Assembly (NCBI GenBank): GCA_002215675.1
Contig: NGFH01000003.1
Coordinates: 80,957 to 144,956, forward strand
Length of the DNA stretch: 64,000 nucleotides
Origin: Bacteroidetes bacterium 2013_40CM_41_45
GTDB lineage: Bacteria > Bacteroidota > Bacteroidia > AKYH767-A > 2013-40CM-41-45
Reading direction: 5' to 3'
The notes under the pieces are model-generated. The model saw only the letters and a list, made by a program, of their open reading frames with translations. It was not told where the DNA came from and made no database searches. A program made the translations under genes and the position numbers. Of the stretch, positions 23,948 through 63,891 are shown one piece after another; position 1 is the stretch's first letter, and each line of letters starts with the position of its first letter.

Positions 23948-24631
23948 ATGATAAAAATTTATCGTGTGGGTGGTGCAGTAAGAGATTCTATTATGGGACT
24001 AAAATCAAAGGATATTGATTATTCTGTTGAAGCAGAATCTTTTGATGCTATGCGTGATTATATTGTTAGTATTGGCGGTCAGATATTTCTTGAAACTCCA
24101 AATTTTCTAACAATTCGTGCAAGAGTTGGTAGAGAATCGGCAGATTATGTTCTTGCACGTAAGGATAATGATTATAGTGATGGGCGCAGACCTGATTCCG
24201 TTGAACCCGGTACTCTCTATGATGACCTTGCAAGGCGTGATTTCACAATGAATGCTATCGCCATTGATTCTCAAGGATATTATATTGACCCTTTTTATGG
24301 AATCATAGATATAGGACAAAGGATTATCCGCTGTGTTGGAAAAGCAGAAGACCGTATTTCAGAAGATTGGCTTAGATTGCTTCGTGCCGCTAGATTTTCA
24401 ATCACCAAAGATATGAAAATTGATTCAACCATTACAAAATTTTTTGATGATAACTATGCAACTTCTCATCTAGCAAAATCTGTTTCTGAAGAAAGAATTC
24501 GTGAAGAAACTAGTAAAATGTTTCAAGCAGATACAAGAGTCTCAATTAAATTTTTTGGTCAATATCCTAAAATGTCATATGCTTGTTTTGGCGGTGGCAT
24601 TTGGTTAAAGCCAACAACTGAAGAGAGATAA
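23948..24631 (+). CDS. tRNA nucleotidyltransferase (CCA-adding enzyme / poly(A) polymerase head-domain family)
   Basis: GGAVRD...DIDY and RRDFTMNA motifs, typical of the class II CCA-adding head domain. Confidence 0.75.
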   Translation: MIKIYRVGGAVRDSIMGLKSKDIDYSVEAESFDAMRDYIVSIGGQIFLETPNFLTIRARVGRESADYVLARKDNDYSDGRRPDSVEPGTLYDDLARRDFTMNAIAIDSQGYYIDPFYGIIDIGQRIIRCVGKAEDRISEDWLRLLRAARFSITKDMKIDSTITKFFDDNYATSHLAKSVSEERIREETSKMFQADTRVSIKFFGQYPKMSYACFGGGIWLKPTTEER

Positions 24632-32144: not shown

Positions 32145-32151
32145 ATTGAAA

Positions 32152-32190
32152 AAGAGATAACTAAAGCCAATAGTTATCTCTTTTTATTTT
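32152..32190 (+). terminator. rho-independent terminator (AGAGATAACT...AGTTATCTCT + T-run)
   Basis: Seen directly. Confidence 0.65.
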
Positions 32191-32194
32191 AACC

Positions 32195-32223
32195 TTGACA
32201 TTTAGGTTTTAATGTGGTAATAT
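32195..32223 (+). promoter_or_regulatory. sigma70-type promoter TTGACA-N17-TGgTAATAT
   Basis: TTGACA at 32195-32200 and TAATAT at 32218-32223. Confidence 0.55.
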
Positions 32224-32253
32224 TGTTGAAAATTTGAAAAGAGGTAATTGTCA

Positions 32254-32664
32254 ATGACCAATATTTCCACCATAAGAAGTTTAAAATCACAATCAAAAAA
32301 TTGTTATTATTGTGGATATTATATTGTATTCAAAGAAGATTTGACCGTTGACCATAAACTTCCTATTTCTAAAGGTGGAAAAACAAATAGAAAAAATTTA
32401 GTAGTTTGCTGTAAAGGCTGTAATGAAGAAAAAGGTTCAATGACAGAAATTGAATTCTTCAATTATATGAAATATAAAGAAAATTTAAAATATAAATATG
32501 ATTACGATGAATTGACAAATCAAATGCTAAAAATTAAAGATATTTTTAAAATTATTGGACGCGGTTCATTCAAATTGATTGACAGTGAATCTGGAATTCA
32601 TCTTCATAGAAAAATTAGAGCGATAAAGATTGTGAGAAAATTTTATGCACTTCAAATGTATTAA
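32254..32664 (+). CDS. HNH endonuclease
   Basis: CYYCGYYIVFKEDLTVDHKLPISKGGKTNRKNLVVCCKGCNEEK carries the HNH core (DH...N...C..CN.K). Confidence 0.65.
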   Translation: MTNISTIRSLKSQSKNCYYCGYYIVFKEDLTVDHKLPISKGGKTNRKNLVVCCKGCNEEKGSMTEIEFFNYMKYKENLKYKYDYDELTNQMLKIKDIFKIIGRGSFKLIDSESGIHLHRKIRAIKIVRKFYALQMY

Positions 32665-32807
32665 TAATTCAGAACGTGAAGATATATTAACCTTGAATAA
32701 AATATATTTAGGATATTTTGATGACCAAAATATTGATTCAATTTATATTGATGAATGTGATAATGGTATTCGTGGATACTTTAGTTTAAATAGATTTGAG
32801 GTGATTG

Positions 32808-33254
32808 ATGAAGAATAAAATACTTGTTTTATCAAGAAAAGTTGCTGAAGGTTATGATTGGTATGGTAGAGATATTGCAATCATATCTGTAACAGACCCA
32901 AATCAACCATCGGCTAAATTAAATTATTTTGAGGATAAGATTCTAAGACTTCAATTTCATGATGTAGACAAAGATATGAAAATGTGGACTCCAAATGGAA
33001 CTGTACGCATATTTACAATAAATGATAGTCAAGTAAAAGATATTGTTCAATTTGTTGATAAATATTTTTATAATGTTGATGAATTTGTTATTCACTGTGA
33101 AGCTGGAATATCGAGGAGTGCAGGAATAGCCGCCGCCATTGCAAAATATATTTATCTTGATGATACAGAATATTTCAAGAAGTATATTCCAAATAGAACT
33201 GTTCACCGTTTAGTATTGAATGAATTTTATAAGCTAAAAGAAACGATAATTTAG
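32808..33254 (+). CDS. Cys-based phosphatase of the PTP/DSP superfamily (CX5R P-loop)
   Basis: HCEAGISRSAGIAAAIAKY. Confidence 0.65.
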   Translation: MKNKILVLSRKVAEGYDWYGRDIAIISVTDPNQPSAKLNYFEDKILRLQFHDVDKDMKMWTPNGTVRIFTINDSQVKDIVQFVDKYFYNVDEFVIHCEAGISRSAGIAAAIAKYIYLDDTEYFKKYIPNRTVHRLVLNEFYKLKETII

Positions 33255-33264
33255 GAGAATGAAA

Positions 33265-34356
33265 ATGACCGATAGGCCAATGGCAACACTTAGAACTGTA
33301 AATAATAAATATCCTATTCCTGAAAAGGATAGGATTGAATTGATTCAGGTAGATGGATGGCAAGTAATTTCAAAAAAGGATGAATTTGAAATTGGTGATA
33401 TGTGCATATATGCTGAACCAGATTCTATTTTTCCTGAAATACCAGATTTTGAATTTCTTCGTCCTAAAAAATTTCGTATTAAAACTATGAAGATGGCTGG
33501 AGTTATTAGTCAAGGCATTGTTTTTCCATTATCAATTCTCCCCCTCCGCAACAAGAAATATGTTCTTGGCGAAGATGTTACGGAATTGATTGGTATCACA
33601 AAATATAAAAGTGAACCAGATAATTCAATTCCACAACCAACATGGATGAAAAATCCAATTGTTAAAAAACTTTTGAGATATAAAATTTTTAGAACAATTC
33701 TTTTGCCAAATAAAGAATATAAAGGATTTCCAAAATTCATTTCTAAAACAGATGAAGAAAATGTTCAAAATTTACCATATTTATTTTCTGAAGAATTTAA
33801 AAACGTTCCATTTGCTGTTCGTGAAAAAATAGAAGGTCAATCAGGAACGTGGTTTCTTCAAAGAAAAAAGAATTGGTTTGGAAAAGAAATTTTTGAATTT
33901 GGAGTTTGTTCAAGAAATATTCGTAAATTCAAAAAAGATAATTCATCATTTTGGAAAGTTGCCATAAAATATAATATTGAAAATATTCTAAAAGAATTAA
34001 TTGGTGATAAAAATGAATGGATTGCCATTCAGGGTGAATGTGTTGGCCCCGGCATTCAAGGCAATATCTATAAATTAAATGATGTTGATGTTTATATGTT
34101 TAATTATATAGAACCAAAAGGAAAAATGGATGATAAAATAGCTGAAGTTGTTATGAATTCATATAGCATTAGATGGTGTCCTTTAATTGATAATGAATAT
34201 TATCTTCCATCAACAGCAAATGATGTTCTTGAATATTCAAATGGTACATCGCTTTTATATAATACTGACCGTGAAGGATTGGTATTTCGCAATTACGAAA
34301 AAAATATTAGCTTCAAAGCACGTTCACCTAAATATTTATTAAAATCTGATACATAG
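33265..34356 (+). CDS. ATP-dependent RNA-ligase-like nucleotidyltransferase
   Basis: KIEGQSG (motif I-like K-x-E/D-G), EGLVFRN (motif IV-like) and FKARSPKYLLK (motif V-like). Confidence 0.5.
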   Translation: MTDRPMATLRTVNNKYPIPEKDRIELIQVDGWQVISKKDEFEIGDMCIYAEPDSIFPEIPDFEFLRPKKFRIKTMKMAGVISQGIVFPLSILPLRNKKYVLGEDVTELIGITKYKSEPDNSIPQPTWMKNPIVKKLLRYKIFRTILLPNKEYKGFPKFISKTDEENVQNLPYLFSEEFKNVPFAVREKIEGQSGTWFLQRKKNWFGKEIFEFGVCSRNIRKFKKDNSSFWKVAIKYNIENILKELIGDKNEWIAIQGECVGPGIQGNIYKLNDVDVYMFNYIEPKGKMDDKIAEVVMNSYSIRWCPLIDNEYYLPSTANDVLEYSNGTSLLYNTDREGLVFRNYEKNISFKARSPKYLLKSDT

Positions 34357-34365
34357 GATAAAAAA

Positions 34366-34713
34366 ATGGAAACTTTTATAATTGATAGAAATACTTGGTT
34401 ACGAGGACAATTCAATAGCATGTTGTTTCGTGCTAAAGATGGGAAAATGTGTTGTCTTGGGCAAATTGGATTACAATGTGGCTTAAATGAAAAAGATATG
34501 TCTAATAAAATAAGTCCTACTAATGCAATAGAACATTTAATAGAATTTCATAATGTCAATCCATTTTTTATATCATTGATGAATAAAAATTATTTTCTTA
34601 GCATGAAAGCAATGGGAATAAATGATAATATATATACCAATGATAAATATAAAGAAATACAATTAAAATCATTATTTGCAAAATATGATGTTGAATTAAA
34701 ATTTATAAATTAA
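34366..34713 (+). CDS. hypothetical protein
   Basis: 115 aa. Confidence 0.45.
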   Translation: METFIIDRNTWLRGQFNSMLFRAKDGKMCCLGQIGLQCGLNEKDMSNKISPTNAIEHLIEFHNVNPFFISLMNKNYFLSMKAMGINDNIYTNDKYKEIQLKSLFAKYDVELKFIN

Positions 34714-34729: not shown

Positions 34730-35173
34730 ATGAATAAGAAAAATAATACAAATTTTGTACAAGTTGAAGGAAATGTAAATAAGGCAATTCAAGGAAATAT
34801 TACGACTACAACTACTTGGCCTCCTGTTACTGGTCAAGTTTGGCCTATGGATATTTCAGGAATTAGTAATCAACCAGAAGTTGCAGACCAAATTAAACAA
34901 GTTATTATAAATGATAGGACTGTAATTATCAACTGGAAAGATGGAACAAAAAGTCGTTCTACCTGTGATGTTGAAGATATTTTTAATCCAGAATTAGGAT
35001 TTGCAATTGCTGTAATTAAAAAATTAATTGGTAAAAAACGTTATACTGGTTTTGTTGAAAAAGCTTTGCGCCAACAAAAAAATCGTATTAGAAAAATTGG
35101 TCGTTCTGCATTAAAATCGCTTGCTAATGATACATCAGAAGAATTTAATATAACAATATCCCTTCTTCCATAG
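34730..35173 (+). CDS. hypothetical protein
   Basis: 147 aa. Confidence 0.5.
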   Translation: MNKKNNTNFVQVEGNVNKAIQGNITTTTTWPPVTGQVWPMDISGISNQPEVADQIKQVIINDRTVIINWKDGTKSRSTCDVEDIFNPELGFAIAVIKKLIGKKRYTGFVEKALRQQKNRIRKIGRSALKSLANDTSEEFNITISLLP

Positions 35174-35191: not shown

Positions 35192-35668
35192 ATGACAATC
35201 ATTCATAAATCAGGAAATATTTTAGATGCAACAGAAAACATAATTATTCACCAAGTAAATTGTGAAGGTGTAATGGGTGCGGGTTTAGCAAAACAATTAA
35301 GAAATAAATGGCCTATAATATATACAGAATATAAAAAATTATGTGATGAAAATCGTATAAAATTTATGTTGCTCGGAAAAGTTCAATATATTAAAGTTGA
35401 TGAAAAAAAATATGTTGCAAATATGTTTTCACAATTAGGAATTGGAACTGACAAAATTCAAACAATTTATTCTGATATGAAAAAAGGTCTTAAACGTATT
35501 GAACAAGGAGCAAGATTTGATGGTCTTTCAATAGCTCTCCCTTTTCAACTAGGATGTAATCGTGCTGGTGGAGATTGGGATGGCGTAGTATATCCAATGA
35601 TTCAAGAAATTTTTAATATATCAGATGTGGATGTTGCAATTTATACATATGAATCAGAGGTCAAATGA
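35192..35668 (+). CDS. macro domain protein (ADP-ribose binding/processing)
   Basis: IIHQVNCEGVMGAGLAKQL matches the macro-domain N-terminal motif (V/I-N-x-x-N...GGG(V/L)xxA). Confidence 0.65.
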   Translation: MTIIHKSGNILDATENIIIHQVNCEGVMGAGLAKQLRNKWPIIYTEYKKLCDENRIKFMLLGKVQYIKVDEKKYVANMFSQLGIGTDKIQTIYSDMKKGLKRIEQGARFDGLSIALPFQLGCNRAGGDWDGVVYPMIQEIFNISDVDVAIYTYESEVK

Positions 35669-36093: not shown

Positions 36094-36618
36094 ATGTATG
36101 TCGTACTCGACCTAGAAACAGGTTCTTTAAATCCAAATACCGGAGCAATTTGTTCAATAGCTTGTCTTGCTCTTGATGAAGATTTGAATGAAACTCATCG
36201 TTATTACACACTGGTGAATGAACCCGGCAAACTCGTAGAAGATGCCGCTCTTGCTATAAATAAATTGACAAGAGAAGAAATTTCAAAAGGAAAACCTATT
36301 GAAAAAGTATTATCTGACTTGAAAATAATTATGAGAAATAGAATACCGATTGCTCACAATGGAAGGTTTGATTTTGGATTTCTTGCCGCAAGAGGATTTG
36401 AATTTGATGTTGCAATTGATACTTTAATGATTGCTAAAAAACTTTTTCCAAAACAAAAAAATAATTTAACAGAACTTTGCCAAAGATTAAATATACAAGT
36501 TGAAAATACTCATAACTCATTAGGTGACTGTTTATTAACTGCTGAAGCACTTAGAAAAATGTCAAAGACTCAATGGCTGAACGCATTAGAACCTAGACCG
36601 ATAGGAAAGAAAATATAA
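36094..36618 (+). CDS. DEDD-family (DnaQ-like) 3'-5' exonuclease
   Basis: LDLETGS (Exo I), AHNGRFDFGFL (Exo II) and HNSLGDCLLTAEA (Exo III, H-x4-D). Confidence 0.65.
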   Translation: MYVVLDLETGSLNPNTGAICSIACLALDEDLNETHRYYTLVNEPGKLVEDAALAINKLTREEISKGKPIEKVLSDLKIIMRNRIPIAHNGRFDFGFLAARGFEFDVAIDTLMIAKKLFPKQKNNLTELCQRLNIQVENTHNSLGDCLLTAEALRKMSKTQWLNALEPRPIGKKI

Positions 36619-41659: not shown

Positions 41660-42697
41660 ATGCCCGCTAATATAATGGATAATGATAAGGTTGTTCTTTC
41701 AGGTGATGAACCAGCTTGGCATGGATTGGGTGAATATTTTGAAATTCCAATTTCTGCCGAAAAGGCTCATGATGAAATGGGTGGAAGTTTTACTCTCTAT
41801 CAAAAGCCAGTTGGTGTACAATTTGATGATGGAGAATTTATTGAAGTTCCAAAGTCATTTGCAATTGTGCGTGGTGAAACAAATAAGGATAACCGTAAGT
41901 TGGTTTTTGGATATACAACTGACCATTATACAGTCATTCAACCAATTGATATTATAAAAAAGTTTGATGAACGTGTTGGGGTTTCAATTTCAAGTTTAGG
42001 TTTTATTCAAGATGGTCGTAAAATGTTTTTGTCTTGGAAACTTCCTTCTTTTGAAGTTGTAAAGGGTGATGAAATAAAATTGTACGGTTGTTTGTTAGTT
42101 GGATATGATAAGATATTTTCAAGTCGTATCAATATTGGAACAATTCGTATTGTCTGTGAAAATACTTTTATGGCTAATATGAATGAAGCTGAACAAGAAA
42201 ATAAAAGTAATCGTGGTCGTGGAACAATCTATTCCGGCAAGCATTCTAATTCAAAATTACTTTTTGAATTGGGAGAATGGATGAATCATATTCAAGGAAA
42301 TGCTGAAAAAGAACAAGCTTTACTACAATCATTTTTTAAGAATTTGGTCAATAAACCAATTAAACATGAAAAGCAAGCGCAAGATTTAATTTATACTGCA
42401 TGGCCTGACCCTGCTCCATTTAATCCAGATTCAATTCCTTTGGCTTTACATGATAAGGAACAAGGTAAAATTGATTTAAAGGCCGCAAGAGTTGAAAAAA
42501 TTCGTAATGGTGTATATGATTTATACACTGGTAGCGAAGGAATTGCTATTGATGAAAATTATTATGGACTCTTCAATGCTTGCACACAATATTTCAACCA
42601 TAAAATGATTTCAAAAAAGGATGATGCATTTTCAATTTCATGGGGTGGTCGTTCGGCTGAAATGAATATGTTTGCTGAAGTATTAAAGAATAATTAA
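41660..42697 (+). CDS. hypothetical protein (345 aa)
   Basis: Strong RBS AAAAGGAGAAAA. Long ORF. Confidence 0.6.
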   Translation: MPANIMDNDKVVLSGDEPAWHGLGEYFEIPISAEKAHDEMGGSFTLYQKPVGVQFDDGEFIEVPKSFAIVRGETNKDNRKLVFGYTTDHYTVIQPIDIIKKFDERVGVSISSLGFIQDGRKMFLSWKLPSFEVVKGDEIKLYGCLLVGYDKIFSSRINIGTIRIVCENTFMANMNEAEQENKSNRGRGTIYSGKHSNSKLLFELGEWMNHIQGNAEKEQALLQSFFKNLVNKPIKHEKQAQDLIYTAWPDPAPFNPDSIPLALHDKEQGKIDLKAARVEKIRNGVYDLYTGSEGIAIDENYYGLFNACTQYFNHKMISKKDDAFSISWGGRSAEMNMFAEVLKNN

Positions 42698-42772: not shown

Positions 42773-42803
42773 GTATATATCAATCTAAGAAAGGATGATA
42801 AAC

Positions 42804-43643
42804 ATGTTTCCAGAATATCAAGAATTTTTTAATTCAAAATCAGATAAAAGTATTCACACTCTACGCTCATATCATCAAAACATTGATTCTTTTATTAGTG
42901 CTTTGAAAATTAAGAAAGTAAAAGATTTGGAAAAAGTATCTGCTGGTACATTGCGTACTTATCGTGATTCTTTGAAAATTTCAAATGCTTCAAAAAATAC
43001 TTGGACTCGTGTTTTATCATCTTTCTTTAGTTTTATGAATGAACAAGAATATATTGATTTCAATGTTTTTGATAAGGTAAAATATCTTTCTCTTACTGAA
43101 AAAGAAAAAACAATCAATATGCCAACACAAGATGAAATTAAAATGATTATTGAATCTTGTGAAAACAAAACTACAAAATTGATGTTGAATATTATGTCAC
43201 GTATTGCTTTACGTCGTGATGAATTATCAAAAATCCAAATTAAAGATATTGACGCTGATGGTCGTATTATTATTCATGGAAAAGGAAGCAAAATTAGAAT
43301 GGTGAAACTTCCTTTGGATATTTTTGAAACAATTAAGGCTCATATTAAAAATAAACGTGTAAAGTCAGAATATCTATTTAGCTATGATGGTCATAAAATT
43401 ACGGGCGATGCAATTTATATCCGTATTAATGGATTTATTGAAACCTTGAATATTTCTGATGAACGTAAAAAGGCAATTGCACATCCTCATGCTCTACGTC
43501 ATCGTGCATTGACCACCACTTACAACGTAACTAAAGACCCATATGCTGTAAAGAATTTGGCTGGTCATTCCAATTTAGCTATTGGCGAAAGATATATTCA
43601 TGCTGAATCAAATATTTATGATGATGTTACGGAGAATTTGTAG
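42804..43643 (+). CDS. tyrosine site-specific recombinase (integrase/XerC-D family)
   Basis: Box motifs ALRRDEL (Arg I), HALRHRALT (H-x-x-R) and LAGHSNLAIGERYIH (catalytic Tyr). Confidence 0.75.
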   Translation: MFPEYQEFFNSKSDKSIHTLRSYHQNIDSFISALKIKKVKDLEKVSAGTLRTYRDSLKISNASKNTWTRVLSSFFSFMNEQEYIDFNVFDKVKYLSLTEKEKTINMPTQDEIKMIIESCENKTTKLMLNIMSRIALRRDELSKIQIKDIDADGRIIIHGKGSKIRMVKLPLDIFETIKAHIKNKRVKSEYLFSYDGHKITGDAIYIRINGFIETLNISDERKKAIAHPHALRHRALTTTYNVTKDPYAVKNLAGHSNLAIGERYIHAESNIYDDVTENL

Positions 43644-46935: not shown

Positions 46936-48030
46936 ATGGAACTAGAATTACTTGCTTTTATCAAACATAATCCTGATTGGAAAACAATTCTTCAGGAAAA
47001 ACCATATGGAATAACTATCAAAGAAAAAAATGGTTATATTCTCTTTATGTACAGTCAAATTGAAAGTGATTTCAAATTATCTTTAGTACGTGAATGTCGT
47101 GGTTTGATTTTACGTGAAAAAGATTTAAAACCTGTTTGTATGGCTTTCAAAAAATTCGGAAATTATGGTGAAAGTTATGTTCCCGATATTGACTGGTCAA
47201 ATGTTAAAGTACAAGAAAAAGCTGACGGTTCGATAATTAAATTGTGGTTTGATAATAATGAATGGCATGTTTCTACAAATGGAACAATTGATGCATCTGA
47301 TGCTTCACTATCAGAAAATTCAATGTTAATAGATGGATGTATTTATAAAAATTATTCTGAATTATTTCATAGTGTTTTTCCACAAAATTTATATTATGAT
47401 GTTTTGAATATTGATTTATGCTATATCTTTGAATTAGTTTCAAATTTTAATAGAGTTGTGATTCCTTATAATGAAACAGCATTGTACCATATTGGCACTA
47501 GAAATATGAAAACCCTAGAAGAATTAGACATTGACATTGGAATTAAAAAACCAAAATTATATAATTTAACTTCATTAGAAGAAATTTTAGAAATAGTAAA
47601 AAAATTACCATTCAATGATGAAGGATATGTTATTTTAGACAAATTTTGGAATAGATTAAAAATAAAATCATTAGCATATATTTCTGCTCATCATTTAAAA
47701 AATAATGGTGTTGTTACAAAGAATCGTGTTCTTGATATGATTAGAACCGGCGAACAATCTGAGTTTCTTAATTATTATCCAGAATATCAAGAAATTTTTA
47801 ATGAAGTCCAAAATAAAATTAATAAACTTTTGGTATCCATTGAACATGATTATATTCTTTTCAAAAACAGAAAATTTGAAGATAGAAAAGAAATGGCATT
47901 ATGGGTAAATCAAACTGTTTGTCCGTCTGCTATATATAGTTTATATGATAAAAAAGTATCAGATGTAAATAGTTTTGTTTTCGGATTAACTAATGAGCGT
48001 TTATTGAAAATGATTGGAGAAAAAGAATGA
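46936..48030 (+). CDS. ATP-dependent RNA ligase, T4 Rnl1-like
   Basis: Motif I VQEKADGS (K at ~aa 95), motif IV DEGYVILDK, motif V RLKIKSLAY. 364 aa. Confidence 0.65.
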   Translation: MELELLAFIKHNPDWKTILQEKPYGITIKEKNGYILFMYSQIESDFKLSLVRECRGLILREKDLKPVCMAFKKFGNYGESYVPDIDWSNVKVQEKADGSIIKLWFDNNEWHVSTNGTIDASDASLSENSMLIDGCIYKNYSELFHSVFPQNLYYDVLNIDLCYIFELVSNFNRVVIPYNETALYHIGTRNMKTLEELDIDIGIKKPKLYNLTSLEEILEIVKKLPFNDEGYVILDKFWNRLKIKSLAYISAHHLKNNGVVTKNRVLDMIRTGEQSEFLNYYPEYQEIFNEVQNKINKLLVSIEHDYILFKNRKFEDRKEMALWVNQTVCPSAIYSLYDKKVSDVNSFVFGLTNERLLKMIGEKE

Positions 48031-48941
48031 CTGAACTAAGATTTCTTGTTGGAATTCCTGCAAGTGGAAAATCTACTTTTGCAAAAGAGATTTTAAAAGA
48101 TAATAATTATGTTCTTGTTTCATCGGATTCATATCGTGAAAAAATTTATGGTTCGGAAGAAATTCAAGGAAATAAAAATGAACTTTTTGAAATTATCAAT
48201 AAAGATATTATTCAATATCTTATGGATGGTAAATCTGTAATTTTTGATGCGACAAATATAGATTTAAAAAAGAGAATGGAATTAATAAAAAAAATAAATT
48301 CAAAAGTTTCAGATATTTATATAACAGCACAAGTTGTTGCAACCCAATATAAAATCTGCTTGGAAAACAACAGGAAACGGACACGTTTCGTCCCCGAATT
48401 CGTTATTAAGCGCATGTATGAAAATTTTACTTTTCCTCAAAATTTTGAAGGTATTCACAATGTCTTTATTCGGTATGATTATGATAAATATGATTATCGT
48501 CAAGAATGGCTTGAAGAACTAATGGATGATTTCAACCAAGATAATCCCCATCATAGTTCTACGCTTGGTCAGCACACACTTAAGGTTTTTGAAAATATTT
48601 TGACTGTTGCTCCCGATAATCATAGATTGCAATTGGCCGCTAAATTTCACGATATAGGAAAATTATATACAAAGACTTATAAAGATTCAAAAGGAAATCA
48701 GAAAGATTTTGCCAGTTATTATAATCATGAGCAAGTTTCGACATATGAATCTATGTTTTATCTTAAAGAAAAAAATATTCAAAATTTTGATATGTTCTAT
48801 ATTCTTGGATTGATTCAATTTCATATGAGGTTATATGGAATCAATTCTGATAAAAGCAGAGATAAACTTATAAATCTCATTGGTAGACAAATGTATGAAG
48901 ATTTAATTTTATTAAATGATGCAGATAAAAATGGAAAATAA
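48027..48941 (+). CDS. P-loop polynucleotide kinase fused to HD-domain phosphohydrolase (RNA end-healing enzyme)
   Basis: Walker A GIPASGKST. HD motifs HHSSTLGQH...KFHDIGK. 4-nt overlap with the ligase gene. Confidence 0.65.
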   Translation: MTELRFLVGIPASGKSTFAKEILKDNNYVLVSSDSYREKIYGSEEIQGNKNELFEIINKDIIQYLMDGKSVIFDATNIDLKKRMELIKKINSKVSDIYITAQVVATQYKICLENNRKRTRFVPEFVIKRMYENFTFPQNFEGIHNVFIRYDYDKYDYRQEWLEELMDDFNQDNPHHSSTLGQHTLKVFENILTVAPDNHRLQLAAKFHDIGKLYTKTYKDSKGNQKDFASYYNHEQVSTYESMFYLKEKNIQNFDMFYILGLIQFHMRLYGINSDKSRDKLINLIGRQMYEDLILLNDADKNGK

Positions 48942-50061
48942 TATAGAAAAAATAATAAAATTTTTAAATATAAAAAATTATATTTTCATTGATAATTACC
49001 ATAAAAATAATCAAATAAGAGTTATTATCCAAGACAAACTTGGCTATAAATATGATGTTCAATTTGGAAATTTAAGTGTTCAAAAGCCAAAAATTGTCCA
49101 TAAATTCAATCCCTTTAGTTTAGAAAATATAGGAATATGGATAAAGATAAATAAAAAGAATTTTTTATTATTGAAAAATAATATTTATCTAAATGCCAAT
49201 GAAAAGTTAAGATTTAAATGTTTGGATAATAAATGTAAAGAAATTTTTTTCGCAAGTTGGCATTCAATTTTTAGTGGTAGAGGATGCACATTTTGTTCTG
49301 GTTTTGAAGTTGGCAGACATAATAATTTAGAATATTTATTTCCTGAAATTGCAAAAGAATGGGATAAATCAAATTTTATAAAAGCATTTGAAATTACCTG
49401 TGGTTCAACAGAAAATATTTTATGGAAATGTAAAAAATGTGGTTATAAGTGGAATGCTTCTCCGAATCAAAGAACTTATTATAAAACGGGTTGTCCTTCT
49501 TGTTCTGGATTAATTGTTTCGGATAGTAATAGATTGTCTATTTTATTTCCAGAAATATCAAAGGAATGGCATCCAATAAAAAATGGGAATTTGACTCCAA
49601 ATGATATTAGTTATGGAAGCAATAAGAAATTTTGGTGGCTATGCCCAAAAGGACATGAATATTATTCTGCTGTTAATAATAGAATAAATGGAAGGAATTG
49701 TAAAAAATGCAAAATTAAAAAAGGTGAAAAAGAAATTATTAAAATTCTTGATATTTATAATGTAAAATATAAATTTCAATGTAATGATTTTAAAGATTGC
49801 AGAGACAAAATTGTTTTATATTTTGATTTTTATTTACCTGACTATAATATTTGTATTGAATATCAGGGAATTCAACATTATGAACCAATTGATTTTGCTG
49901 GTCGCGGTAAGAAATGGGCAAAAGAAGAATTTAAGAAAAATAAAAGAAGAGATAAAATCAAGATAAAATATTGTCAGAAAAATAATATTAAATTGATTAT
50001 TATACCTTATTGGAATTTTGATGAAATTGAAAATATTTTAAAAAGGAATTTGAAAATATGA
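48931..50061 (+). CDS. Zn-ribbon-repeat (DUF4379-like) protein with C-terminal nuclease-like module
   Basis: Repeats LFPEIAKEW...CPSCSG and LFPEISKEWHP...W.CPKGHEY. C-terminus is FDFYLPDYNICIEYQGIQHYEP. The start is uncertain (48916 or 48931). Confidence 0.6.
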   Translation: MENNIEKIIKFLNIKNYIFIDNYHKNNQIRVIIQDKLGYKYDVQFGNLSVQKPKIVHKFNPFSLENIGIWIKINKKNFLLLKNNIYLNANEKLRFKCLDNKCKEIFFASWHSIFSGRGCTFCSGFEVGRHNNLEYLFPEIAKEWDKSNFIKAFEITCGSTENILWKCKKCGYKWNASPNQRTYYKTGCPSCSGLIVSDSNRLSILFPEISKEWHPIKNGNLTPNDISYGSNKKFWWLCPKGHEYYSAVNNRINGRNCKKCKIKKGEKEIIKILDIYNVKYKFQCNDFKDCRDKIVLYFDFYLPDYNICIEYQGIQHYEPIDFAGRGKKWAKEEFKKNKRRDKIKIKYCQKNNIKLIIIPYWNFDEIENILKRNLKI

Positions 50062-50222
50062 ATGTTTATCATGTCAAAATAAATATAATCATATTAATAA
50101 TGTGTACAATTCTAGTCTTTTTTGTTGACAATCTATATCATAAACATTATTTAGATTGTGCATATAACTTAATGGGTGTTTTGGGATTACTTATAATGTA
50201 TAATCTAACAAAAGGAAAATAA

Positions 50223-50447
50223 ATGGAGGTAGCAATGAATAGAGAAACTGTTAAATTTCACTTGGAAAATATTAGAAATAATAAAAGTAAAGATGGTCAC
50301 ATTCAAGATTTAAAATTAGAGATTAGTTCATTGCGAATTATGGCCTTTAAATATAAAGGAAGTGGTTTGGCTAAGGTTGCAGAAAAAAGAGCAAACGATA
50401 TTGAAAAGGAATTAACATTAGCTATTTTGGACGCAAAAAGAAAATGA
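50223..50447 (+). CDS. hypothetical protein
   Basis: RBS AAAGGAAAA. Confidence 0.45.
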   Translation: MEVAMNRETVKFHLENIRNNKSKDGHIQDLKLEISSLRIMAFKYKGSGLAKVAEKRANDIEKELTLAILDAKRK

Positions 50448-50965
50448 ATTATAATCCAAAAAATCAAGGTGGTCTTGATAGTTTATGTTCAGTATATAGT
50501 ATTATCAATGCTTATGGAATAACGATGAATGCCACCGATAATGAACAACAAAAATTATTTAATGATATTATTGCATATCTTTCTAAAAAAAGAATTTTGA
50601 AAGACGTAATTATTGGTGGTGTTTATCATAAGCATATGGTAATGATGTTGGAAGATGTTGTTGGAGATAGAATACCAGTAAAAAATCTAATATGGAAAAG
50701 TTTTCCAACACCAACAAAAAGAATTTTCTGGAATTCAATTGTAGAACATTTATCAAATGAAAATAATGCTGTAATTTTAAGTATGGGTGGTAGGCGTGAC
50801 CATCTATCATCAGCATATCAAGCAACAGATAAATCAATAAAATTATTGGATTCTAATGGAATGAAATCAATTAGATATAAAGATTCAACTACTGATACAA
50901 GTGTTCACACAATAAAAAAATTCATGCTTTATCCAAGTCAATGTTGGTTTTTATCTAAGGAATAA
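50444..50965 (+). CDS. hypothetical protein with candidate Cys...His peptidase-like arrangement (DSLCSVYS ... GGVYHKH)
   Basis: 173 aa. The functional call is speculative. Confidence 0.4.
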   Translation: MNYNPKNQGGLDSLCSVYSIINAYGITMNATDNEQQKLFNDIIAYLSKKRILKDVIIGGVYHKHMVMMLEDVVGDRIPVKNLIWKSFPTPTKRIFWNSIVEHLSNENNAVILSMGGRRDHLSSAYQATDKSIKLLDSNGMKSIRYKDSTTDTSVHTIKKFMLYPSQCWFLSKE

Positions 50966-50966
50966 A

Positions 50967-51857
50967 ATGAAAAATTTAAAAATAATTTTTGAAACTAAAG
51001 CAGGTTCACATCTTTATGGAACAAACACTATATCTAGCGATATGGATTATCGTGGTGTTGGCGTTGTTCCAATTAAAGATATGCTTGACCCCTTCCAAGA
51101 ATTCAATCAATTTGAAGATAATGAATCTGATGATAGAATTATTTATGGATTGAAAAAATTTATGAAATTGGCAAGCGATATGAACCCCAATGTTTGTGAA
51201 TTGTTATATGCAAACGAAAATTCTATTATTAAATTAACAAAACAAGGTAAAATTCTTTTAGATAATAGAAACTTATTTCTATCACAACTTGCACGAAAAA
51301 CATTTTTTGGATATGCAGTTGCACAATTGAAAAGAATTGAATTACATAAGAATTATCTTTTAAATCCTCCAAAAAATAAACCTAATCGTGAAGATTATGG
51401 TTTGCCAGCTATGCCAAATTTTGGATTGGAAAAAATTGTCAACATGATTCATTCTCCACAAGAAACTATTGCACCTGAATGGCGTGAATATGCATTAAAA
51501 GAAAAATCATATCGTGATGCTTCAGACAATTATCAAAAATATGAACAGTGGAAAAATAATAGAAATCCAAAACGTGCATTACTAGAAGAAAAATGGGGGT
51601 ATGATTTAAAGCATTCTAATCATTTATATAGACTTTTGACTGAAGGAAGAGAATTATTAGAAACAGGAAATATTGTATTTCCTTTAAGAAATGTTGATAA
51701 ATTAAAATTTATTTTAAATGGTGGTATGACTTACAATGATTTGATGGAAGAAGTAAATGAATTAAATAAACTTTTTGAAAATTGTAAATCTAATTTACCA
51801 AATAAACCAAATATCAATAAATTAAAAGAATTATATTATAAAATTCTAGGAATATAA
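50967..51857 (+). CDS. predicted nucleotidyltransferase (Pol-beta superfamily, GS-x10-DMD)
   Basis: AGSHLYGTNTISSDMDYRGVGV. 296 aa. Confidence 0.55.
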   Translation: MKNLKIIFETKAGSHLYGTNTISSDMDYRGVGVVPIKDMLDPFQEFNQFEDNESDDRIIYGLKKFMKLASDMNPNVCELLYANENSIIKLTKQGKILLDNRNLFLSQLARKTFFGYAVAQLKRIELHKNYLLNPPKNKPNREDYGLPAMPNFGLEKIVNMIHSPQETIAPEWREYALKEKSYRDASDNYQKYEQWKNNRNPKRALLEEKWGYDLKHSNHLYRLLTEGRELLETGNIVFPLRNVDKLKFILNGGMTYNDLMEEVNELNKLFENCKSNLPNKPNINKLKELYYKILGI

Positions 51858-60424: not shown

Positions 60425-60506
60425 GAGAATATGATGGAATGCAGACATGCCAACCTTAGAAGTTGGTGCTAGAAATAGCATACTGGTTCAAATCCAGTTA
60501 TTCTCA
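60425..60506 (+). tRNA. tRNA-Leu(TAG), type II
   Basis: Hand fold gives acceptor GAGAATA/TATTCTC, anticodon stem CCAAC/GTTGG with loop CTTAGAA, a long variable arm, and T-arm ACTGG-TTCAAAT-CCAGT. Confidence 0.7.
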
Positions 60507-60510
60507 CTAT

Positions 60511-60585
60511 GCTGATATGAAGGGAATTGGCATACCTATTTCGCTTAAAACGAAATGTTTACAGGTTCGACTCCTGTTATCAGCA
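60511..60585 (+). tRNA. tRNA with anticodon TAA (reads UUA; Leu by anticodon) but short variable loop (type I-like)
   Basis: Acceptor GCTGATA/TATCAGC. Anticodon stem TTTCG/CGAAA with loop CTTAAAA. T-arm ACAGG-TTCGACT-CCTGT. 75 nt. Confidence 0.5.
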
Positions 60586-60599
60586 CAAACAATCACTAT

Positions 60600-60685
60600 G
60601 TTCATGTGGCTGGAATTTGGTAGACGCGGCAGTTTCAAAAACTGTTATCTGAAAAGATGTGTGAGTTCGATTCTCTCCATGAACA
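60600..60685 (+). tRNA. tRNA-Leu(CAA), type II
   Basis: Acceptor GTTCATG/CATGAAC. Anticodon loop TTCAAAA. Variable arm ATCT-GAAA-AGAT. 86 nt. Confidence 0.6.
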
Positions 60686-60689
60686 CTAT

Positions 60690-60761
60690 GTCCCATTATT
60701 TCAATGGATAGAATAAAACGCTACGAACGTTTTGGTGCGAGTTCGACTCTTGCATGGGACT
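60690..60761 (+). tRNA. tRNA-Arg(ACG)
   Basis: Acceptor GTCCCAT/ATGGGAC. Anticodon stem AAACG/CGTTT with loop CTACGAA. T-arm GCGAG-TTCGACT-CTTGC. Confidence 0.65.
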
Positions 60762-60787
60762 CAAAAATTAAATGAAAAGGATGTTTT

Positions 60788-61102
60788 ATGAATAAATTTT
60801 GGTGTATATTTAGAATATTTTTTAAGAATACACTAGGAGAACTTTATGCTATTATGATAGGTGTGCCATTAGTTATAATAGTTTTTTTATTGATTTCTCA
60901 TTGGATAAGTAATTATGGAATTTATATAAAATCTTTTCTTTATAATATTCTTTATCAAATTTGTTTATTTTTATATTTATATAAAGATTTTATTATTTAT
61001 TTTCTATTTTCAATTTTCAATTTATTTTATATTTATGGATTTTATTCTGCATTGAAATATCAATGGAATAAAGCCAAAAAAGAATACAGTGGTATATTAT
61101 GA
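60788..61102 (+). CDS. small membrane protein
   Basis: 104 aa, hydrophobic. Lies between tRNA groups. Confidence 0.4.
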   Translation: MNKFWCIFRIFFKNTLGELYAIMIGVPLVIIVFLLISHWISNYGIYIKSFLYNILYQICLFLYLYKDFIIYFLFSIFNLFYIYGFYSALKYQWNKAKKEYSGIL

Positions 61103-61455
61103 GATTTCAAATTGCACAAAAAGGTGAAAAAAGAGATGTGGAAGGATTTCTTTGGCTTCCAAGAGGCTTTGATGGCAATGAAATAAGATGGTTAGAACAT
61201 GCTAAATGGAGAGAATATTATGATGGTATTAATTGGATATTTTACTATTGGAATGATTAAACGCAGTTAATAAAGGAAATATTTTATTAATAAAAAAATA
61301 GAGTTGGGCATATTCGTATGGATTGTAGTAAGTTTATTGTATTTTATAATTCTAGGATTTACTTTACGTCATATAATGTTACTATCATTTGGCTTTATTT
61401 ATGGGATTTTAAAAATAATTTCATCAATTGATGAAACGTGAATTTTATCAATAAT

Positions 61456-61536
61456 GAGTTTGTAGCCTATTGGGATGGCATCTGCCTCTTAAGCAGACAG
61501 AGTAATCTAGAACAGGTTCGATTCCTGTCAGACTCA
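61456..61536 (+). tRNA. atypical tRNA, anticodon CTT (Lys by anticodon) with 3-bp D-stem and 14-nt variable region
   Basis: Acceptor GAGTTTG/CAGACTC (one G-U pair). Anticodon stem TCTGC/GCAGA with loop CTCTTAA. T-arm ACAGG-TTCGATT-CCTGT. Confidence 0.45.
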
Positions 61537-61549
61537 CAGAAATAAAAAT

Positions 61550-61635
61550 GGAAGAATGCATTCATGGGAATAACTAGTCTTGAAAACTAGGCTACCGAGT
61601 AGCCCTCGATAACGGTTCGATTCCGTATCCTTCCT
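61550..61635 (+). tRNA. tRNA-Ser(TGA), type II (boundaries approximate)
   Basis: Anticodon stem CTAGT/ACTAG with loop CTTGAAA. Variable arm GCTAC-CGA-GTAGC. T-loop TTCGATT. Confidence 0.5.
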
Positions 61636-61672
61636 CTAGTAAGAAAAATTCATTTTCAAAAGGATATTAAAA

Positions 61673-61804
61673 ATGTCGCCAAAGAATGAAGTTACTAAAA
61701 AATATTTGATTACAAGAGATGAAGAAGTTTTCACTGATTGGCTTTTCAAAAGTCAGGTGAGCGATTATATTCGCAGAGGATATATCGTTGAAGAAATAAA
61801 GTAA
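61673..61804 (+). CDS. small hypothetical protein (43 aa) between tRNAs
   Basis: Manual translation gives MSPKNEVTKKYLITRDEEVF... Confidence 0.3.
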   Translation: MSPKNEVTKKYLITRDEEVFTDWLFKSQVSDYIRRGYIVEEIK

Positions 61805-61810
61805 TGAATT

Positions 61811-61900
61811 GGAATCATGACAGAGTAGCAATGTGTATGTTTGCTAAACATAAGCCACCAGTAACATGATGCGTAGGTGCAAATCCTACTGATTCCGCCA
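61811..61900 (+). tRNA. tRNA-Ser(GCT), type II, with encoded 3' CCA
   Basis: Acceptor GGAATCA/TGATTCC. Anticodon stem TATGT/ACATA with loop TTGCTAA. T-arm GTAGG-TGCAAAT-CCTAC. CCA at 61898-61900. Confidence 0.55.
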
Positions 61901-61903
61901 AAT

Positions 61904-61974
61904 GACACCTATTCCTACCGGGTGGGGAATTGTCTGCAAAACAATTAATAGAGATTCGACTTCTCTAGGTGTCT
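61904..61974 (+). tRNA. tRNA-Cys(GCA)
   Basis: Acceptor GACACCT/AGGTGTC. Anticodon stem ATTGT/ACAAT with loop CTGCAAA. T-arm AGAGA-TTCGACT-TCTCT. Confidence 0.65.
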
Positions 61975-62005
61975 CTTTCAGCATTTGTTGAAACAGGAGC
62001 AAATA

Positions 62006-62143
62006 ATGAAAATTGAAAAAGCAAACAAAAGAGATAAAAAACGCTTCAAAAAGAAGAATGGAATGATTGTTGGAAATAAAAGTATTTTTATAATACAAGA
62101 AATACAAATAAAGAAATCGAATAAATTAAAGAAAAATAAATAA
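62006..62143 (+). CDS. small basic peptide (45 aa) between tRNAs
   Basis: RBS CAGGAG. Sequence is MKIEKANKRDKKRFKKKNGM... Confidence 0.3.
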   Translation: MKIEKANKRDKKRFKKKNGMIVGNKSIFIIQEIQIKKSNKLKKNK

Positions 62144-62147
62144 TTAT

Positions 62148-62220
62148 GTGTTTGTAGTGTAGTTAGTCTGCACGTTTGCCTGAAGAGCAGAAAGTGCTAG
62201 TGCAATTCTAGCCGGACACA
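62148..62220 (+). tRNA. tRNA-Phe(GAA)
   Basis: Acceptor GTGTTTG/CGGACAC (two G-U pairs). D-stem GTGT/GCAC. Anticodon loop CTGAAGA. T-arm GCTAG-TGCAATT-CTAGC. Confidence 0.6.
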
Positions 62221-62224
62221 CTAT

Positions 62225-62301
62225 CCTCCAATATACCCTCGTTCTTATAAAGCGCAGAAAGGTTAATTGGTGACATGATGGTTCGAGTCCATCTTGGAGG
62301 A
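62225..62301 (+). ncRNA. tRNA-like element: perfect 7-bp acceptor stem and canonical T-arm, but no anticodon arm found by hand
   Basis: CCTCCAA...GATGG-TTCGAGT-CCATC-TTGGAGG-A. No 5-bp/7-nt-loop pairing fits in the intervening 45 nt. Confidence 0.35.
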
Positions 62302-62305
62302 CTCT

Positions 62306-62378
62306 ATTCCTATAACTCAATAGTAGAGTGTCCGTTTTACATGCGGAATGTTGGGGGTGCAAGTCCCTCTAGGAATAC
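62306..62378 (+). tRNA. tRNA-Val(TAC)
   Basis: Acceptor ATTCCTA/TAGGAAT. D-stem ACTC/GAGT. Anticodon stem TCCGT/GCGGA with loop TTTACAT. T-arm GGGGG-TGCAAGT-CCCTC. Confidence 0.65.
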
Positions 62379-62399
62379 TAAAATTTAAGGAGAATAAAA

Positions 62400-62648
62400 A
62401 TGAATGAAAATGATATAGAACACATTATTAATCAAATGAAATATATTCCTATTAGAAATTTTTATCATGCAGATAGATATGATACAGATAATGAATATGT
62501 TATTCATCTTTGGACTGAAATAGGTCAAAAAAATTTTGACATTAGAATTAAAAAAGAAAAAATTAAATGTCCATATTGTGACGATTTTTATTATGAGGGT
62601 GGTTGGGCAAATCATTTATTAATGAAACATCATCAACATGCTGGATAA
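62400..62648 (+). CDS. hypothetical protein (CPYC ... HLLMKHHQH zinc-finger-like)
   Basis: RBS AAGGAGAA. Confidence 0.5.
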   Translation: MNENDIEHIINQMKYIPIRNFYHADRYDTDNEYVIHLWTEIGQKNFDIRIKKEKIKCPYCDDFYYEGGWANHLLMKHHQHAG

Positions 62649-62656
62649 ATTATAAA

Positions 62657-62911
62657 ATGAGACAAGTTAAACTTTTATATTTCAAATCATATGGTAAATA
62701 TTATTCTGAAGGTTCGTATGCTACTCAAAAAGAATATGATTTTGATGTTTATACCGAAGTAGAAAATATGTTTTTAATTGGTAGTTATCCGGGACTATAT
62801 AACACTGGAAAACCTCATGAATTTGATTGTGTTATTTTCCCTGAAAATGGTGTTCCCGGAATTCTTTATGCAAAAGAAATACAAAATTTATTTAAGATGA
62901 TTAATGGCTAA
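62657..62911 (+). CDS. hypothetical protein
   Basis: Start re-set to MRQVKL. Confidence 0.45.
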   Translation: MRQVKLLYFKSYGKYYSEGSYATQKEYDFDVYTEVENMFLIGSYPGLYNTGKPHEFDCVIFPENGVPGILYAKEIQNLFKMING

Positions 62912-63149
62912 ATTTGATTTAAGACCGATAATGGAATTTCAAGTAAAAGTTGTTTTGACCGAAGAAGAAGCTAGGGCGTTGCAATATATTTGTAAATATG
63001 GTGCAGATACTTTAATCAAAGGCTTGGATACTGTCATGACCACAAAAGAAATTAGCAAGGGAATCAGAAGTCTTGTTCGTGATACACAAGATTCTATAAA
63101 TAAACAAATTAGTAAAATTGATGAAGCTAGAAAAGTAGTTGAAGAATAA
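62904..63149 (+). CDS. hypothetical protein
   Basis: 81 aa. Confidence 0.45.
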   Translation: MAKFDLRPIMEFQVKVVLTEEEARALQYICKYGADTLIKGLDTVMTTKEISKGIRSLVRDTQDSINKQISKIDEARKVVEE

Positions 63150-63152
63150 TTG

Positions 63153-63446
63153 ATGAAATTTATGTTTTATGGAAATAATATAATTATGTTCAAACAAAAA
63201 TGTCCAATATGTGATTCAAAATTAGAATATGATATTGATAATTTAGATTTTTATCTAATGGAAGAGCATTATAATTGCCCCAATAAAGATTATTCTTATT
63301 CATATGAATATGGAATGACAAACATAACAATAGGAAATAAAGAATTTAATTATACTTATTTGGATAGCAATGTAAAAAAAGCTTTAATTTTAAAAGAAAT
63401 CAAATTAGAGACTGAAAGATTGAAGTCCTTGACAAGATTAGAATAA
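63153..63446 (+). CDS. hypothetical protein (CPICD...CPNKD)
   Basis: 97 aa. Confidence 0.4.
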   Translation: MKFMFYGNNIIMFKQKCPICDSKLEYDIDNLDFYLMEEHYNCPNKDYSYSYEYGMTNITIGNKEFNYTYLDSNVKKALILKEIKLETERLKSLTRLE

Positions 63447-63483
63447 TATGGTATAATTATATTAAATTAGAAAGGAATTATTT

Positions 63484-63708
63484 ATGAAATCATATCATAT
63501 TGTTTTATTGTCTGCTTTGGCAACTTTGTGTGCTTTATTTTCTTTTGTTAATTCTGTTCGAGATATGGAAATTGATAATAATGCTTTCATTCTCGAAACA
63601 AATAACTATGACTTAATTATTGCTCATAATGATAATCATGTTGAATTTAATTTGAATTATTTTTATGGTAATAAAGCATATCAAATAGAAAAAATTTTTA
63701 TTTTTTAG
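63484..63708 (+). CDS. secreted/membrane small protein (N-terminal signal-like helix)
   Basis: RBS AGGAA. 74 aa. Confidence 0.45.
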   Translation: MKSYHIVLLSALATLCALFSFVNSVRDMEIDNNAFILETNNYDLIIAHNDNHVEFNLNYFYGNKAYQIEKIFIF

Positions 63709-63819
63709 TTATTTATTGACTGTTTTTGGTGCATAGTCAAATTTATATCGTAATGATATAAGGGACGCTTGGCGACCTACATAGAAAAGCATAGTAACCA
63801 TATTTATTAAAAATTAAAT

Positions 63820-63891
63820 GCTGTTTTGGTCTATTGGCTAAGACAATTCTTTCTCAAAGAATTATGATGGGTTCGATTCCCATAAACAGCA
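63820..63891 (+). tRNA. tRNA-Glu(CTC)
   Basis: Acceptor GCTGTTT/AAACAGC. D-stem GTCT/AGAC. Anticodon stem ATTCT/AGAAT with loop TTCTCAA. T-arm ATGGG-TTCGATT-CCCAT. Confidence 0.6.

Follow-up and report, generated by a model that had tools for sequence, protein, structure and literature searches.

A dual-specificity-fold phosphatase gene beside an Rnl5-type RNA ligase gene in an apparent uncultured phage: a possible partner in RNA end healing

Why does a gene for a small Cys-phosphatase lie 10 nt ahead of a gene for an RNA ligase, and could the one enzyme prepare the ends that the other seals? The two genes lie in a 64,000-nt stretch of DNA from Bacteroidetes bacterium 2013_40CM_41_45 (contig NGFH01000003.1, positions 80,957–144,956), here called the window, in which a promoter is followed on the + strand by four open reading frames (ORFs) joined by overlaps or tiny gaps. 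These encode an HNH endonuclease, a 57-codon ORF, a CX5R Cys-phosphatase of the dual-specificity phosphatase (DSP) fold and an RNA ligase (Table 1). We find that the ligase belongs by its sequence to the Rnl5 family as a divergent but complete member, and that genes of the phosphatase family adjoin Rnl5 genes in divergent lineages and in both orders, which supports, without proving, a role of the phosphatase as an RNA-end phosphomonoesterase. Our tentative reading, to which we give somewhat less than an even chance, is that it acts on RNA termini and yields the 3'-OH for Rnl5, with both its substrate and its coupling to the ligase inferred. The novelty of the phosphatase clade and of its linkage to the ligase is provisional.

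The ligase consists of an N-terminal oligonucleotide-binding (OB) domain of the PHA02142 type (PF21189, 2.5e-26, residues 8–91 of the ORF read from 33259) followed by a nucleotidyltransferase (NTase) domain (PF09414, 1.1e-12, residues 184–353 of the same ORF). No C-terminal domain is appended, and this layout is the Rnl5 architecture. The protein matches the Naegleria gruberi ligase NgrRnl (PDB 5cot) at 5.9e-39 across both domains and falls in PHROG 968 (7.7e-62). A preliminary description of this DNA had called an RNA-ligase-like gene at 33265 from the motifs KIEG, EGLVFR and FKAR, a call that these matches bear out. The nucleophilic lysine and the key residues of motifs III, IV and V align with their NgrRnl counterparts (Table 1), and, with residue roles in NgrRnl taken from Unciuleac et al. 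(PMC7261155), the window ligase retains equivalents of R4, D53, K121 (OB domain), T145, K170, R190, E227, F248, E312 and K326. It shares the OB–NTase layout, motifs I, III, IV and V, and most ATP and metal contacts with both NgrRnl (5COT) and DraRnl of Deinococcus radiodurans (DR_B0094). Unlike NgrRnl, it reads KIEG and not KLDG in motif I, with Glu in place of D172, and has Asn in place of R149. Two points tell against the assignment. One is this loss of R149, a position that is Arg in three and Asn in three of six phage homologues, and the other is the score against TIGR02306 (RNA_lig_DRB0094), which at 1e-35 and 123.2 bits lies under the equivalog cut-off of 151.15. The assignment rests on the NgrRnl and Pfam evidence.

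Enzymes of the Rnl5 family carry out Mn2+/ATP-dependent sealing of 3'-OH/5'-PO4 nicks through a Lys-AMP intermediate and need RNA on the 3'-OH side (PMC5397189 and PMC4408790). By homology, the window ligase should likewise seal 3'-OH/5'-PO4 nicks with an RNA 3'-OH strand. The ligase family itself is already known and is not new, since Rnl5 has been described in bacterial viruses (PMC5397189) and an Rnl5-family ligase occurs in 321 GenBank phage records, mostly annotated 'RNA ligase' and with 35% identity or less to the window ligase.

The phosphatase looks catalytically competent, but homology gives no substrate. The preliminary description had named a PTP/DSP-type phosphatase (PTP, protein tyrosine phosphatase) with the loop HCEAGISRS at 32808 and had proposed structure prediction as a check. 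The AlphaFold model (pLDDT 95.5, pTM 0.90) places a strand at residues 92–97 and a helix at 102–116 around this P-loop, and Foldseek against the PDB returns DUSP10/8/16/5 at probability 1.0, with TM ~0.6 and 18% identity, which upholds the DSP fold. The profile check proposed at the same time came out unevenly: PF09414 matched the ligase, whereas the Pfam DSPc profile reached 1.8e-5 and 25.0 bits with the phosphatase, below its gathering score of 33.5, and aligned with the P-loop region only. Sequence searches of the PDB, with the single sequence and with a profile, likewise recovered the DUSP P-loop only and no solved structure aligning beyond it. The closest enzymes in structure and P-loop (HCxAGxSRS) are MAP-kinase phosphatases (MKPs) and atypical DUSPs (DUSP10, DUSP8, DUSP16), from which the window protein differs by its ~18% identity, the TM of ~0.6, the sub-threshold DSPc score and a beta-hairpin inserted after the Asp loop, ahead of the helix that leads into the P-loop strand. 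At the position of this hairpin, five homologues (P0010, P0012, P0016, P0019 and P0035; alignment columns ~100–135) carry a CxxCxGxG...CxxC insert that resembles a zinc ribbon of the DnaJ type. Searched against BFVD, the model finds its best viral matches in 'putative DSP' proteins of phiKZ-like and other jumbo phages; neither the PDB nor the BFVD matches hold a hint of substrate.

By sequence, the protein belongs to a large, separate and uncharacterised standalone family. A profile search of 1.84 billion representative proteins (50% identity) gave 5,523 representatives at E<=1e-10, nearly all of them standalone proteins of 135–175 residues. The wider family carries the JGI label 'predicted protein tyrosine phosphatase', and the window protein falls in PHROG 5614 (3e-18), a family without assigned function; the family has no solved structure, and the literature that we searched holds no characterisation of it. 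In a 38-member alignment S27, L46, F50, D52, C97, E98, G100, S102, S104, P128 and N129 are invariant and R103 is retained in at least 90%, and the family motifs read ILRLQFHDxD (containing D52), HCEAGISRSAG and PN (P128-N129). In the model D52 directly follows strand 45–49, the topologically expected place for the general acid, which makes it the candidate general-acid Asp. Three members are tandem duplications of the DSP domain (P0121, P0232, P0237).

How close is the tie between this phosphatase and Rnl5? We collected 80 viral and 80 metagenome DSP loci with 8-kb flanks, dereplicated them to 121 and retained the 88 with at least 6 kb of flank. Ten of these hold an Rnl5-type ligase within 8 kb, at gaps of 0, 0, 68, 390, 391, 1072, 1728, 4730, 6380 and 7155 nt. 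Five of the ten gaps are thus 400 nt or shorter, where 5% would be expected if gaps were uniform over 8 kb (binomial ~6e-5), a statistic that is an internal distance test with the uniform distribution assumed and no external control family. When L004-like loci are lumped as one lineage and the window is added, the count becomes 4/9 and the probability ~6e-4. The ligases in these pairs carry the OB and NTase architecture. Rnl5 precedes the phosphatase in six loci (L004, L009, L248, L268, L282, L062), and the phosphatase precedes Rnl5 in the window, in L013/14/19 and in L296. The Rnl5-linked phosphatases are 31–45% identical to the window protein and scattered over a neighbour-joining tree of the family, in which the L109 phosphatase is not represented. 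Among the L005 and L009 loci, whose phosphatases are at least 80% identical, Rnl5 lies directly upstream in L009 and a different 132-aa ORF takes that place in L005, pointing to a ligase gene gained or lost recently beside the phosphatase.

Seen from the ligase, the genes within 8 kb of the 80 closest viral Rnl5 loci include a kinase-HD gene in 10, often immediately downstream, Rnl1 in six, the DSP-fold phosphatase in four, RlaP in three and a CCA-adding enzyme in two. The phosphatase is therefore found near Rnl5 about as often as RlaP, whose family name comes from its link to RNA ligases. Other end-processing genes also stand near the phosphatase. An AAA_33 kinase and metallophosphoesterase pair lies beside the Rnl5–DSP pair in L004 and L062, a kinase-HD gene lies near the pair in L109, and in L276 an RNA_ligase-domain gene, with a kinase-HD gene next, is found 1.7 kb away from the phosphatase, arrangements comparable to the Pnkp (kinase, calcineurin-like phosphoesterase and ligase) and HD-Pnk modules. 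RlaP abuts the phosphatase in L078, and in L285 (= L022) the phosphatase lies between RlaP and a CCA-adding/HD enzyme. The cultured 469-kb Sinorhizobium phage Phosso has a homologue (31% identity) amid genes for an aminoacyl-tRNA synthetase, tRNA, peptidyl-tRNA hydrolase, metallophosphatase and an RNA ligase that is not Rnl5. Side by side, two of these neighbourhoods run as follows: L285 (4460–14157) has RlaP, a 75-aa ORF, the phosphatase and the CCA-adding/HD enzyme, with macro and DUF2828/DUF7788 vWA (Ro/TROVE-like) genes further on, and L013/14/19 has the phosphatase, a 72-aa ORF, Rnl5 and then DUF2828/vWA.

How might the two enzymes work together? The ligase would react with ATP to form Lys188-AMP, using its N-terminal OB domain, and then seal 3'-OH/5'-PO4 nicks in duplex RNA or RNA:DNA whose 3'-OH strand is RNA, as a nick-sealing counterpart to the Rnl1 plus Pnk-HD pair 13 kb downstream. 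The phosphatase would take a 3'- or 2'-terminal phosphate off RNA, with Cys97 transiently phosphorylated and D52 as the general acid, and would in this way supply the 3'-OH that Rnl5 needs. A role in producing 3'-OH is suggested because the 3'-OH end of RNA is where each recurrent neighbour of the phosphatase (Rnl5, RlaP and the CCA-adding enzyme) works. Since PTP-type enzymes hydrolyse monoesters or anhydrides and cannot open 2',3'-cyclic phosphates, the phosphatase would follow, or work together with, an HD or calcineurin-like phosphoesterase and a 5' kinase, functions that the kinase-HD gene further downstream (Table 1) may supply in this phage. The HNH gene and the 57-codon ORF would be co-transcribed passengers outside the module.

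A joint pathway of phosphatase and ligase had been part of the preliminary description, and the evidence for it is real but indirect: adjacency that recurs in divergent lineages, in both orders and at closer distances than uniform placement gives. Several observations weigh against it. About 89% of the 88 DSP loci have no Rnl5 within 8 kb, any RNA-repair marker that we searched for is present in 16 of the 88 and none in 82%, and a Pfam census of the immediate neighbours in 65 dereplicated viral loci was heterogeneous, with no dominant partner. In 80 bacterial DSP loci, no RNA-repair context was conserved, and the one marker present was an Rnl1 gene 2.6 kb away. Rnl5 most often has the kinase-HD gene as its neighbour (10/80), and there is no obvious gap in 3'-end healing for the phosphatase to fill, because kinase-HD enzymes or the metallophosphoesterases of L004 and L062 could already provide it. 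On the protein side, the MKPs, which are protein phosphatases, are closest in structure, the family's median pI of 5.8 is a mild acidity that counts weakly against RNA binding, and the one domain fusion among the 150 best representatives, DSP–NUDIX (P0151), fits a nucleotide or ADP-ribose substrate equally well. We know of no characterised RNA 3'-phosphatase of the PTP fold.

What else could the phosphatase do? It is unlikely, if still a serious prospect, that its substrates are host or phage proteins with phospho-Tyr/Ser/Thr and that it serves as a protein phosphatase, for instance against kinase-based host signalling or defence, with its proximity to the ligase reflecting a shared status as early accessory genes. 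The best matches in sequence and structure are MAP-kinase phosphatases and other DUSPs, the P-loop HCxAGxSRS is of the MKP type, most family members lie away from RNA-repair genes, and the source annotations read 'predicted protein tyrosine phosphatase'. The DUSP matches, however, remain at the level of the fold, with sequence alignment at the P-loop only, no kinase target is known, and the repeated abutting with Rnl5 in both orders and with RlaP and CCA-adding genes would go unexplained. Tight adjacency to Rnl5 is equally left unexplained if the substrate is a small phosphorylated nucleotide or sugar (ADP-ribose phosphates, NADP-like 2'-phosphates or a signalling nucleotide) and the enzyme forms a counter-defence set with the DarG-like macro domain protein. 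We hold this to be rather improbable: the NUDIX fusion fits it and is single among 150 representatives, and a macro domain gene shares the operon in the window and occurs in L285, yet macro genes lie within 8 kb in only four of 80 DSP loci. A DUF4326 protein is the immediate neighbour in one locus, and domains of the rhodanese-phosphatase superfamily have been proposed to process the ribose-linked phosphates of ADP-ribose derivatives (PMC9503650).

The preliminary description had likened the phosphatase to baculovirus BVP, and the idea has its logic, as Rnl5 requires a 5'-PO4 (PMC4408790) and a BVP/PIR1-like RNA 5'-tri/diphosphatase would turn 5'-ppp into 5'-p ends for the ligase. The likeness to BVP, PIR1/DUSP11 and the metazoan capping-enzyme triphosphatase extends to the superfamily fold and the CX5R loop. 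RNA 5'-phosphatases with the Cys-phosphatase fold do exist, namely BVP, PIR1 and Mce1, and this group has the P-loop HCTHGxNRT and no general acid. The window protein instead has HCEAGISRS, the MKP-like form, and an invariant Asp, D52, at the candidate general-acid position; its best structural matches are MAP-kinase phosphatases, none of the BVP/PIR1/Mce1-type enzymes is among the 50 best Foldseek PDB matches, and its recurrent neighbours RlaP and CCA-adding enzyme work at 3' ends. The analogy finds no support, and a 5'-phosphatase of this kind is very unlikely here. Least credible, to the point of being extremely improbable, is a three-component system in which the HNH enzyme makes breaks that the phosphatase heals and the ligase seals. 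The single promoter, the overlapping or abutting ORFs and the fusion of some Rnl2-family ligases to HNH domains (PMC7824862) speak for it. HNH is missing from every other DSP–Rnl5 pair that we examined, HNH genes are common, free-standing and mobile in phages, and they make up two of 124 genes at positions +/-1 of the phosphatase. The HNH gene had initially been counted as a member of the unit, a view that we abandon given its occurrence within 8 kb in 8/80 DSP and 2/80 Rnl5 loci. The HNH call itself at 32254 is sound: the ORF matches Pfam HNH_5 (5.3e-12) and HNH (4.7e-11; residues 17–62) as well as PHROG HNH families, and its CxxC...DH...N...CxxC-N motifs read CYYC...DH...N...CCKGCN. It is probably a free-standing selfish homing-type endonuclease outside the conserved module; the GC profile was uninformative as to a foreign insert, with 24–33% GC throughout.

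The promoter and gene layout place the phosphatase and ligase at the head of a longer unit. A second contig of this phage, with genes called independently, shows four identical genes with identical start codons, which agree with the starts first proposed. The preliminary description had counted three genes; the 57-codon ORF, independently called, is a fourth, which shares 20 nt with the 3' end of the HNH gene and 11 nt with the 5' end of the phosphatase gene. It has no match in Pfam, NCBIfam or PHROG, and none by tblastn in related DSP and Rnl5 loci. The consensus promoter initially noted ahead of the HNH gene is well founded, as it belongs to a family with the pattern TTGACW-N14-TGNTANNNT, which matches at 15 sites in the window, 14 of them on the + strand, where chance would give 0.2. 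This near-consensus family, with sites that include 3205, 14023, 20645, 29671, 32195, 41564, 42744, 44136, 60138 and 63429, suggests a partition of the region into units of the host-RNA-polymerase type.

The unit does not end with the ligase, as had first been supposed. In an RNAfold-based scan, the interval from 27 to 46 kb holds a single strong intrinsic terminator on the + strand. It lies upstream of the 32195 promoter, where it begins 7 nt past the stop codon of an SH3-like gene and ends the upstream transcription unit; none was found 3' of the ligase in this interval. With no terminator behind the ligase, ~20 closely spaced co-directional genes running on to ~41.1 kb and the next + strand family promoter at 41564, the transcription unit from 32195 most likely spans ~9 kb. 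The block of four genes is best explained as the start of this operon of ~9 kb, host-type and early-looking, in which a large AT-rich uncultured phage carries many genes for nucleic-acid repair and counter-defence.

Table 1. Features of the window discussed in the text, in positions of the window.
Feature	Position	Strand	Details
Intrinsic terminator	32151–32190	+	13-bp stem, 7-nt loop, T-run, dG -13.8
Sigma-70-type promoter, extended -10	32195–32223	+	TTGACA-17-TGgTAATAT
HNH endonuclease	32254–32664	+	136 aa
57-codon ORF	32645–32818	+	no assigned function
DSP-fold CX5R Cys-phosphatase	32808–33254	+	148 aa
Phosphatase P-loop	33093–33119		H96-C97-E-A-G-I-S-R103-S104 (HCX5RS)
Rnl5-type RNA ligase	33265–34356	+	OB and NTase domains
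Ligase OB domain	~33280–33531
Ligase NTase domain	~33808–34317
Ligase nucleophile K188 (KIEG)	33826–33828		aligns with NgrRnl K170
Ligase motif III E258 (QGE)	34036–34038		aligns with NgrRnl E227
Ligase motif IV E337 (REGLVF)	34273–34275		aligns with NgrRnl E312
Ligase motif V K351 (FKA)	34315–34317		aligns with NgrRnl K326
ORF downstream of ligase	34366–34713	+	115 aa; begins 9 nt after ligase stop codon; no family match (Pfam, NCBIfam, PHROG)
Second ORF downstream of ligase	34730–35173	+	147 aa; gap 16 nt; no family match (Pfam, NCBIfam, PHROG)
DarG-like macro domain protein	35192–35668	+	158 aa; NCBIfam DarG 7.2e-22; PHROG 335 1.2e-35; PDB 5m3i 1.8e-13
DEDDh (RNase T / DnaQ-like) 3'-5' exonuclease	36094–36618	+	174 aa; ligase transcription unit
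DUF932 protein	41660–42697	+
Tyrosine recombinase	42795–43643	+	phage integrase family, 2.3e-21
Rnl1-like ligase	46936–48030	+	PF09511 3.2e-13
Kinase(AAA_33)-HD end-healing gene	48027–48941	+	AAA_33 1.9e-18, HD 1.1e-4; overlaps Rnl1-like gene

The genes that follow the ligase in this unit are varied. For the C-terminal part of the 147-aa ORF (residues ~55–130), tblastn finds matches near Rnl5 in five of the 80 viral Rnl5 loci (L088, L091, L102, L139, L145), directly adjoining Rnl5 in L091 and L139. The DarG-like macro gene is the third after the ligase, and its product could serve as a counter-defence of the anti-DarT type by reversing DNA or RNA ADP-ribosylation, or could act on ADP-ribose phosphates that arise in RNA repair. 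The DEDDh exonuclease is supported by a Pfam RNase_T match on an identical gene and by PDB matches to PolC-type and epsilon exonucleases (1.7e-12), and the unit also holds an AAA ATPase and a methyltransferase. In D. radiodurans, the Rnl5 gene is co-transcribed with a DEDDh-like exonuclease, DR_B0095, and a LigB-PARG-Pnk operon lies nearby (PMC5397189). The window echoes this arrangement with Rnl5, a macro domain and a DEDDh exonuclease in one unit, but gene order and exact families differ and no DSP is reported at the D. radiodurans locus.

Beyond this unit, the window holds a second RNA ligase system, the Rnl1-like gene with its overlapping kinase-HD gene, as the preliminary description had stated. 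Its suggestion that two ligase systems mirror those of T4 stands as an analogy only, in that T4 also pairs Rnl1 (with Pnkp) with a separate nick-sealing ligase, Rnl2. Unlike in T4, the nick sealer here is Rnl5 and not Rnl2, the healing enzyme is kinase-HD and not kinase-HAD, and the second ligase is paired with a Cys-phosphatase, which is absent from T4. The accompanying claim that the phosphatase–ligase pathway is distinct from the Rnl1/kinase-HD pair is only partly right, as kinase-HD is the usual Rnl5 neighbour in other phages. RNA-repair and translation genes abound in the window, at 23948–24631, 46936–51857 and 60425–63892, comprising a CCA-adding/poly(A)-polymerase-head NTase, the Rnl1-like ligase, kinase-HD, a DUF4379 treble-clef protein, an RlaP NTase and 11 tRNA genes. 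A tyrosine recombinase and a DUF932 protein are also encoded in this apparent ~148-kb phage (Table 1). GC content is 24–37% across the window, and the same phage is present on metagenome contigs of which the longest has 147,693 bp. Among 50,697 deposited phage genomes there is no close relative at the DNA level, with only short matches in the macro gene.

How would a Cys-phosphatase fit what is known of RNA end healing in phages? The abstract of a 2023 article by Burroughs and Aravind in NAR Genomics and Bioinformatics reportedly predicts activities of the rhodanese-phosphatase superfamily on RNA termini. Our literature search found no link of a DSP or PTP to phage RNA ligases. Kinase, phosphoesterase and HD enzymes are the standard healing partners of phage ATP-dependent RNA ligases, and a review of RNA repair in jumbo phages covers HAD, calcineurin-like and HD phosphatases and no PTP/DSP-fold enzyme (PMC7824862). 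The DSP is not homologous to any of these three healing phosphatases, and a Cys-phosphatase partner would be a possible new variation on the theme of phage RNA repair. A broader proposition, which we regard as doubtful, is that the standalone DSP-fold family would be the first within the PTP superfamily with a dedicated role in removing RNA 3'-terminal (3'- or 2'-) phosphates, a new end-healing class that serves Rnl5, RlaP and CCA-adding enzymes in phages. Such a 3'-phosphatase family might counter host defences in which phosphate or pyrophosphate is used to block the 3' ends of RNA.

Finally, if the link between phosphatase and ligase fails, what is left is an ordinary phage accessory operon with a known type of ligase. 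The physiological role of Rnl5 ligases has been described as uncharted (PMC5397189). A conserved phosphatase partner offers a biochemical handle on this role, in that the end chemistry it removes would define the lesions that Rnl5 meets. Should the phosphatase indeed be a dedicated 3'-phosphatase, its substrate would reveal which lesions Rnl5 ligases repair in vivo.

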